A DNA stretch of 55,880 nt from an uncultured Candidatus Saccharibacteria bacterium (lineage in GTDB: Bacteria > Patescibacteriota > Minisyncoccia > Phycocordibacterales > DSPV01): contig CAZTRA010000002.1 of assembly GCA_964616075.1 (NCBI GenBank), positions 40,473 to 96,352 of the forward strand. The letters run 5' to 3'. Under the pieces are notes generated by a model. The model was not told the origin of the DNA. It did not search any database and worked only from the letters and a program-made list of their open reading frames with translations. Of the stretch, positions 55,345-55,880 are shown piece after piece. How positions within the stretch are numbered: the first letter of the stretch is position 1; every line of letters starts with the position of its first letter. Made by a program: the position numbers and the translations under genes.

Positions 55345-55616
55345 GAAACATGAAGGGCGTATGGTGGATGCCTTGGTTCAAAAAGGCGATGAAGGACGTG
55401 GCATGGCTGCGATAAGCTTCGGGGAGGTGCCTAGCAACCGTTAATCCGAAGATGTCCGAATGGGGAAACCCTATCTGTAGTGATATAGATAATCTCGCGC
55501 GCAAGCGTTGAGGAGCACACCCGGGGAACTAAAACATTTCAGTACCCGGAGGAAAAGAGAACAATAGTTATTCCCTTAGTAGCGGCGAGCGAAAAGGGAG
55601 GAGCCCAAACTCAGCC
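55345..55616 (+). rRNA. 23S rRNA, 5' ~270 nt only. Similarity to 23S stops near 55616.
   Basis: AAGGGCGTATGGTGGATGCCTTGG, GGCGATGAAGGACGTGG, TCCGAATGGGGAAACCC, CCGGGGAACTAAAACAT, AGTACCCGGAGGAAAAGA and TAGTAGCGGCGAGCGAAAAGGGAGGAGCCCAAAC match universally conserved domain I segments, in order. The expected continuation (GGTTGTAGGAC-type helix) is absent. Confidence 0.85.
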
Positions 55617-55711
55617 ACATAGATAGCGTCTAGCTTATAGCGACTAGCGTCTAGTTAAATGCAGCAATGTATTTTTCTAAACGCTTAACGCTAACCGCTA
55701 TACGCTAGCGT

Positions 55712-55880
55712 TTACCCGACCAATGCAATCACCATACCGATAAGCGCGCAGATGACCGATATAATCCAGAAACGCATAGTCACTTTGTAAGAAGACCAAC
55801 CGATAGCTTCAAAATGATGATGAAGTGGCGCAAGCTTAAACAATCTTTTGCCTCCTCGTAATTTTTTTGATAAAAGTTGT
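55712..55880 (-). CDS. mraY: Phospho-N-acetylmuramoyl-pentapeptide transferase, C-terminal 56 codons (gene continues beyond the window).
   Basis: The minus-strand translation is ...[51 protein letters not shown]. The [11 protein letters not shown]....V..RFWII motif is the MraY C-terminal signature. The ORF is absent from the track because it is shorter than 60 aa and open-ended. Confidence 0.85.

Follow-up and report, generated by a model that had tools for sequence, protein, structure and literature searches.

If a 23S rRNA gene with an intact promoter and leader stops matching rRNA after about 270 nt, and the next sequence encountered is the 3' end of a cell-wall gene, mraY, converging on it, either the organism has an unusual rRNA gene or the sequence as deposited is at fault. 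Such a locus closes the window examined here, by which we mean the whole stretch of 55,880 nucleotides that was analysed (G000:C2:40473-96352), a stretch bordered on both sides by runs of Ns. A preliminary description of this DNA offered four readings: an assembly chimera at a conserved rRNA segment, a 5' gene fragment left by a rearrangement, a very large insertion in the 23S gene, and a physically split gene whose 5' piece is expressed separately. The sequence features that it described are all present, with positions off by a few bases at most, and the question is which of the four readings they fit. On our reading, the truncation is very probably not biological: sequence comparison points to a chimeric contig end, followed by Ns that were written despite overlapping flanks.

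Results

The 5' piece of the 23S gene and its limit

Compared with the Rfam model of bacterial LSU rRNA (RF02541), window positions 55341-55880 score 181.4 bits (E 2.3e-56; gathering score 50), in an alignment whose only sound part spans model positions 1 to about 279; over the rest of the window end it has no meaning. The domain I helices follow in order from model position 1, and the sequence belongs to this family both at the window score and at the 430.9 bits obtained across the adjoining scaffold gap. The limit of homology is 55612 (...CCCAAACTC), as given by comparisons with the 23S gene of a genome from the same genus (G001), whose alignment to the window stops exactly there, and with the contig that follows the gap. 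The 23S-like start noticed earlier is real, and its extent needs correction, from about 55345 to about 55616 in the preliminary description to the span given in Table 1.

A whole-genome search of G000 with RF02541 scored 8 candidates and returned 0 matches, which we treat as a false negative because cmscan on the same DNA scores 181-431 bits. The whole-genome search for SSU rRNA also gave 0 matches and, since the LSU search of the same type had produced a false negative, is uninformative on the 16S gene.

Table 1. Features at the end of the window, and contigs of relatives from public sequencing runs that cover it
Feature	Position	Strand	Remarks
Terminator-like hairpin	54849..54885	+	17 pairs and T run; closes the upstream gene
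Sigma-70-like promoter	54938..54965	+	TTGACA-16-TATACT, before the 23S leader; 11/12 matches; near-identical in G001
23S leader	54966..55340	+	conserved hairpin and T run at 55040-55059
Genuine 23S rRNA 5' end	55341..55612	+	Rfam model 1 to about 279; relatives X2 and X4 reach 55612
Tail, part 1	55613..55711	.	non-coding 99-nt stretch; long imperfect hairpin of TAGCG-type 14-nt units
Tail, part 2	55712..55879	-	last 55 codons and stop of MraY, cut by contig end
X2 contig, 29,585 nt	54932-55612		then 286 nt not lying on the tail
X3 contig, 17,505 nt	54932-55607		contig ends there
X4 contig, 509 nt	55149-55612		then 43 nt; of the first 30, 29/30 agree with the post-gap contig and G001

Promoter and leader

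The gene upstream of the operon (54136-54831) matches PF05552, the conserved TM helix of mechanosensitive channels. Promoter-like sites in the region number 2 against a mean of 1.9 in shuffled sequence, so that the promoter scan alone is little proof. The site is nevertheless kept almost letter for letter in G001, where the leader too is recognisably similar, and the contigs of X2, X3 and X4 begin to match the window at 54932-54935, a sharp onset of a conserved block at the promoter. The intact promoter and leader of the preliminary description are in this respect upheld. Complementarity between positions 55319-55347 and the 3' flank of the G001 23S gene suggests a putative processing stem.

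Within the conserved block (54932-55065), the first ~60 nt past 54935 are almost identical in G001, a conservation above that of the 23S itself, and a conserved GC hairpin with a T run (55040-55059) lies about 75-95 nt 3' of the promoter. Antitermination or attenuation in the leader is one possible role of this hairpin, which could otherwise be a small RNA in its own right; no Rfam family matched the block at E <= 0.01. Elsewhere in the window, a match to L10_leader (RF00557) at 52206-52351 scores 38.4 bits, under its gathering score of 44 (E 0.0014).

The gene beyond the scaffold gap

Position 55880 is the final base before a gap of 10 Ns (C2:96353-96362), and a further 633 nt (C2:96363-96995) lead from the gap to the scaffold end. 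The first 65 nt after the gap match window positions 55548-55612 at 59/65, and ordinary 23S sequence follows through to model position 670. The post-gap contig therefore starts 65 nt before the break, and these 65 nt occur both before and after the gap, as two versions with 6 differences between them. When Infernal is run across the gap, the alignment covers model positions 1-670 and assigns 381 nt to an insert that takes in the tail, the Ns and the repeated piece.

Placed by Infernal between model positions of about 279 and 290, this 381-nt insert is what speaks for the insertion reading, under which a very large intron or intervening sequence sits near model position 279 and holds foreign genes, mraY among them; and rRNA genes in the small-genome candidate phyla are known to carry insertions. 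If an rRNA intron were present, however, we would expect the host gene to resume exactly, with no host sequence duplicated, whereas it resumes 65 nt before the break with 6 of the 65 nt differing, and then passes the site uninterrupted. Neither G001 nor the X4 relative carries an insert at the site, intron or homing-endonuclease features were not found, and no Rfam intron family matched positions 48000-55880 at E <= 0.01. The mraY fragment, moreover, is cut by the contig end and points to the 23S start. The large insertion of the preliminary description does not accord with a post-gap contig that begins ahead of the break and runs through it without an insert, and we regard this reading as highly improbable.

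A split 23S gene, whose 5' piece of 270 nt would be transcribed and used separately, would make sense of the intact and conserved promoter and leader. This reading is extremely improbable, because the 23S sequence continues past the gap and in all relatives examined, because no transcript end, processing site or second promoter was seen for a downstream piece, and because model helices that span the break would need a partner strand that is present in the post-gap contig. At the syntenic locus of G001, the gene is one continuous 23S.

The 3' end of the gene was located on another contig: By BLAST and cmscan, C12:10462-10849 corresponds to model positions 2517-2925, is cut by the contig end and is adjoined by a 5S gene (75.5 bits). 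With the G001 23S as a BLAST query, the middle of the gene was not found in the 13 contigs of the bin. The bin thus contains a single set of 23S pieces, with one 5' end (model positions 1-670, closing C2) and one 3' end (2517-2925, closing C12), and because both pieces are cut by contig ends, the gap in the gene is probably one of assembly. A search for the rest of the gene or for a complete copy was hence rewarded by the continuation beyond the gap and by the 3' end on C12, with the middle left unassembled.

Comparison with relatives

The same upstream genes, promoter and leader precede a continuous 23S in G001. Both upstream proteins are present there (75% and 68% identity), the 23S gene is complete (model positions 1-2925, 2313.6 bits) and a 5S gene comes next; the post-gap contig is 93% identical to this 23S over 437 nt.

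A search of sequencing runs yielded 24 runs, none with half of the query words (best 0.35), and four of them (X1-X4) were aligned. Contigs 100% identical to the window came from X1 and cover only 54900-54980 and 54992-55406, at a depth of 3.3-4.5. The relatives in X2, X3 and X4, which derive from three other studies, are about 96-97% identical to the window, and their contigs are described in Table 1. At a likeness of at least 90%, contigs of X1-X4 leave 55626-55790 uncovered, although a lack of cover here carries no weight. The adjoining contig and two relatives, G001 and X4, show an uninterrupted 23S, as would be expected if the window's junction were chimeric. Judged by sequence, the 23S gene is very probably ordinary and continuous, and the region holds a plain 23S-5S operon headed by a conserved promoter and leader of its own.

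Between the two versions of the 65-nt overlap, the changes are apparently compensatory. X2 and X4 carry the window's version throughout, as does X3 up to 55607, and G001 is closer to the post-gap version. Given these differences and the versions found in relatives, two related populations may have supplied the window and post-gap contigs, and the post-gap contig may begin with a mixed end. Each of the two contigs is about 91-93% identical to the G001 23S, a likeness that favours neither as the foreign one; the verdict on the tail is unaffected.

Some features of these 23S genes and of the assembly are recorded here in their own right. In the post-gap 23S, about 116 nt follow model position 583 (G000:C2:96797-96912), compared with about 20 nt in G001, and they include a stretch, set in a stem, like the conserved domain I motif TAGTAGCGGCGAGCGAA. 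Since normal 23S lies on both sides, this insert looks like a real expansion segment, with another local assembly error as a possible alternative. The G001 gene itself spans 3867 nt against a model of 2925 positions and so holds roughly 940 nt of insertions; a tRNA-like element inside it (L023 3868-3942, on G001:C11) scores 56.4 bits with the Rfam tRNA model and is reported by ARAGORN as tRNA-??? with a two-letter anticodon. As to the assembly, flanks resemble each other at three of the four N-gaps of G000. Flanks of the 100-N gap at the left border of the window (G000:C2:40373-40472) repeat 64 nt at 98% with an offset of 62 nt, and those of a 100-N gap at G000:C5:25310-25409 repeat 55 nt at 100% with an offset of 116 nt. 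At these two gaps, the flanks either are overlaps that were left unclosed or belong to tandem repeats within genes.

The tail and its possible source

The tail consists of a hairpin and a gene fragment. A repeat search places the two 10-nt copies of a direct repeat at 55623-55632 and 55644-55653, and direct reading finds exact copies of TAGCGTCTAG at 55624-55633 and 55645-55654, as first described. The 8-bp inverted repeat is likewise there, TAAACGCT/AGCGTTTA at 55678-55685 and 55707-55714, with 100% complementarity. Both repeats are parts of one imperfect hairpin, whose 40-nt arms (55624-55663 and 55668-55707) are 73% complementary. Folded as RNA, the hairpin has a predicted energy of -35.1 kcal/mol (z = -2.33), and with 5 of 200 shuffles folding equally well its predicted fold is only moderately better than that of shuffled sequence. 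The possibility that it is a known RNA was rejected, as 0 Rfam families matched at E <= 0.01.

On the minus strand, the C-terminus of MraY begins where it had been reported, about 100 nt from the 23S sequence: 55 residues and a stop codon, at a spacing of 99 nt, oriented towards the 23S start. The fragment shares 37/55 residues (67%) with the genome's own MraY, aligned over residues 307-360 (E 6e-26), and by this likeness to a bona fide MraY over the C-terminal segment with the HHH-containing motif belongs to that family. No Pfam family matched it, because it lies past the PF00953 domain (residues 111-276). The genome's own mraY is complete and stands on C1, encoding 360 aa with PF00953 and having as neighbours ftsW, murG and a gene for a D-Ala-D-Ala carboxypeptidase (PF00768); identity between the tail and this gene is 74% for DNA and 67% for protein. 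Besides this gene, the tail matches none of the 13 contigs, so that the remaining ~300 codons of a second mraY are missing from a bin with a rated completeness of 100% and contamination of 0.33% (genome size 684 kb). An odd piece at a contig end, copying part of a single-copy gene and having no continuation in the bin, is what a chimera would leave.

Where the tail might have come from was addressed by searching for a donor. Against 61 relatives, tail DNA matched 43 at E <= 0.001, and its coding part was 73% identical to the same genus compared with up to 80% to other families of the order; the hairpin part had no counterpart in these relatives beyond two weak short matches. Against 401 genomes of the order, 62 matched at E <= 1e-15, the best at 77% over 160 nt. 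The best non-self DNA identities, 77-80%, are confined to the coding part of the tail. In metagenome contigs, 401 of 594 candidate stretches encode relatives of the 55-aa fragment; among the best 80 of these 401 loci, identity reached 81% over 54 residues, with one locus at 93% over 42, and the exact 33-nt hairpin pattern had 0 matches. Because no donor contig was found among the order genomes and metagenome loci searched, the foreign origin of the tail is something that we infer: these 268 nt (55613-55880) are most likely stray DNA of another bacterium that was joined on during assembly. No word shared between the 23S and the mraY flank was identified.

Under the rearrangement reading, recombination in this strain or a sub-population could have placed a 272-nt promoter-bearing 23S fragment beside a horizontally acquired second mraY, in which case the post-gap contig would represent another rRNA copy or a co-occurring strain. 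The contig as deposited reads this way, the 6 differences between the overlap versions mean that two populations or copies may exist, and no donor genome for the tail was found. Against this stand a bin with only one 23S set, one 5' and one 3' end; synteny of the leader and upstream genes with the complete G001 operon; close relatives that carry the window's own variant and continue normally beyond 55612; the second mraY, which has no continuation anywhere in the bin; and the scaffolder's own tying of the window contig to the next 23S piece. Such a rearrangement is improbable, and we see nothing in these comparisons that would support the 5' remnant proposed in the preliminary description. A recombinant confined to a sub-population, in which 23S domain I after model position ~279 is joined to the hairpin and mraY of a related bacterium and the post-gap contig is the intact allele, is quite improbable as well.

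Discussion

An assembly chimera at a conserved stretch of rRNA, the first of the four readings, fits all the evidence gathered. Operons for rRNA are commonly split over contig ends in short-read metagenome bins, and the apparent truncation would have begun with a short-read metagenome assembly breaking inside this operon. The true contig would comprise the promoter, the leader and the 23S sequence from model position 1 to about 279, that is, up to 55612. From there, the assembler would have extended the contig into a related but rarer member of the same order present in the same sample, for example by way of a chimeric read or a low-coverage path in the graph, and the added 268 nt would stem from the donor's mraY, as its 3' flank (55613-55711) and its final 55 codons. 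A scaffolder would then have joined the window contig to the next 23S contig by means of read pairs; because the 65-nt overlap was hidden behind the stray tail, the contigs would have remained unmerged and 10 Ns would have been written between them. The post-gap contig carries the gene on to model position 670, the 3' end and the 5S gene lie on C12, and the middle would be either unassembled or unbinned.

If this is correct, the main meaning of the locus is one of quality control, in that 268 stray nucleotides stand at a scaffold join of a species-representative genome. Annotation would yield a truncated 23S gene and a partial second mraY where an operon is really split over two contig ends, and recognising the join keeps a small-genome bacterium from being wrongly credited with a split or interrupted rRNA gene. 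Repair would consist of trimming 55613-55880, closing the overlap, and linking C2 to C12 through the missing 23S middle. Were the junction true after all, the locus would amount to a minor curiosity, an rRNA remnant that has kept a promoter.

Among known systems, the insertions and introns in rRNA genes of CPR bacteria resemble this locus in that the 23S gene of a very small genome (684 kb) seems to contain extra sequence, and real 23S expansions do exist in the lineage, as the 3867-nt gene of G001, set against the 2925-position model, indicates. Unlike such insertions, the extra sequence here is not followed by resumption of the gene at the break, has a scaffold gap inside it, and stops within a housekeeping gene that is cut short. 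Naturally fragmented 23S rRNA, arising from intervening sequences or split genes, occurs in some bacteria and organelles, and the locus is like these cases in that a 5' piece seems to stand alone; it differs from them in that the adjoining contig, G001 and close relatives all have a continuous gene, with no sign of separate pieces.

The nearest likeness in kind is to errors of metagenome assembly. Chen et al. (2020, Genome Res 30:315; PMC7111523) describe Ns that were inserted during scaffolding although the flanks overlap, the retention of non-unique sequence at the ends of scaffolds, stretches of consensus that no reads support, and local errors lacking support in assemblies made with IDBA-UD, CLC and metaSPAdes. 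Our locus shares with the errors described there the Ns between overlapping contigs, the unsupported or non-unique sequence at a contig end and the break within an rRNA gene. It departs from the overlap case of that paper in that the overlap is hidden by a 268-nt overhang stemming from an unrelated locus and exists in copies that differ at 6/65 positions, which makes the junction in this window more than a simple unclosed overlap.
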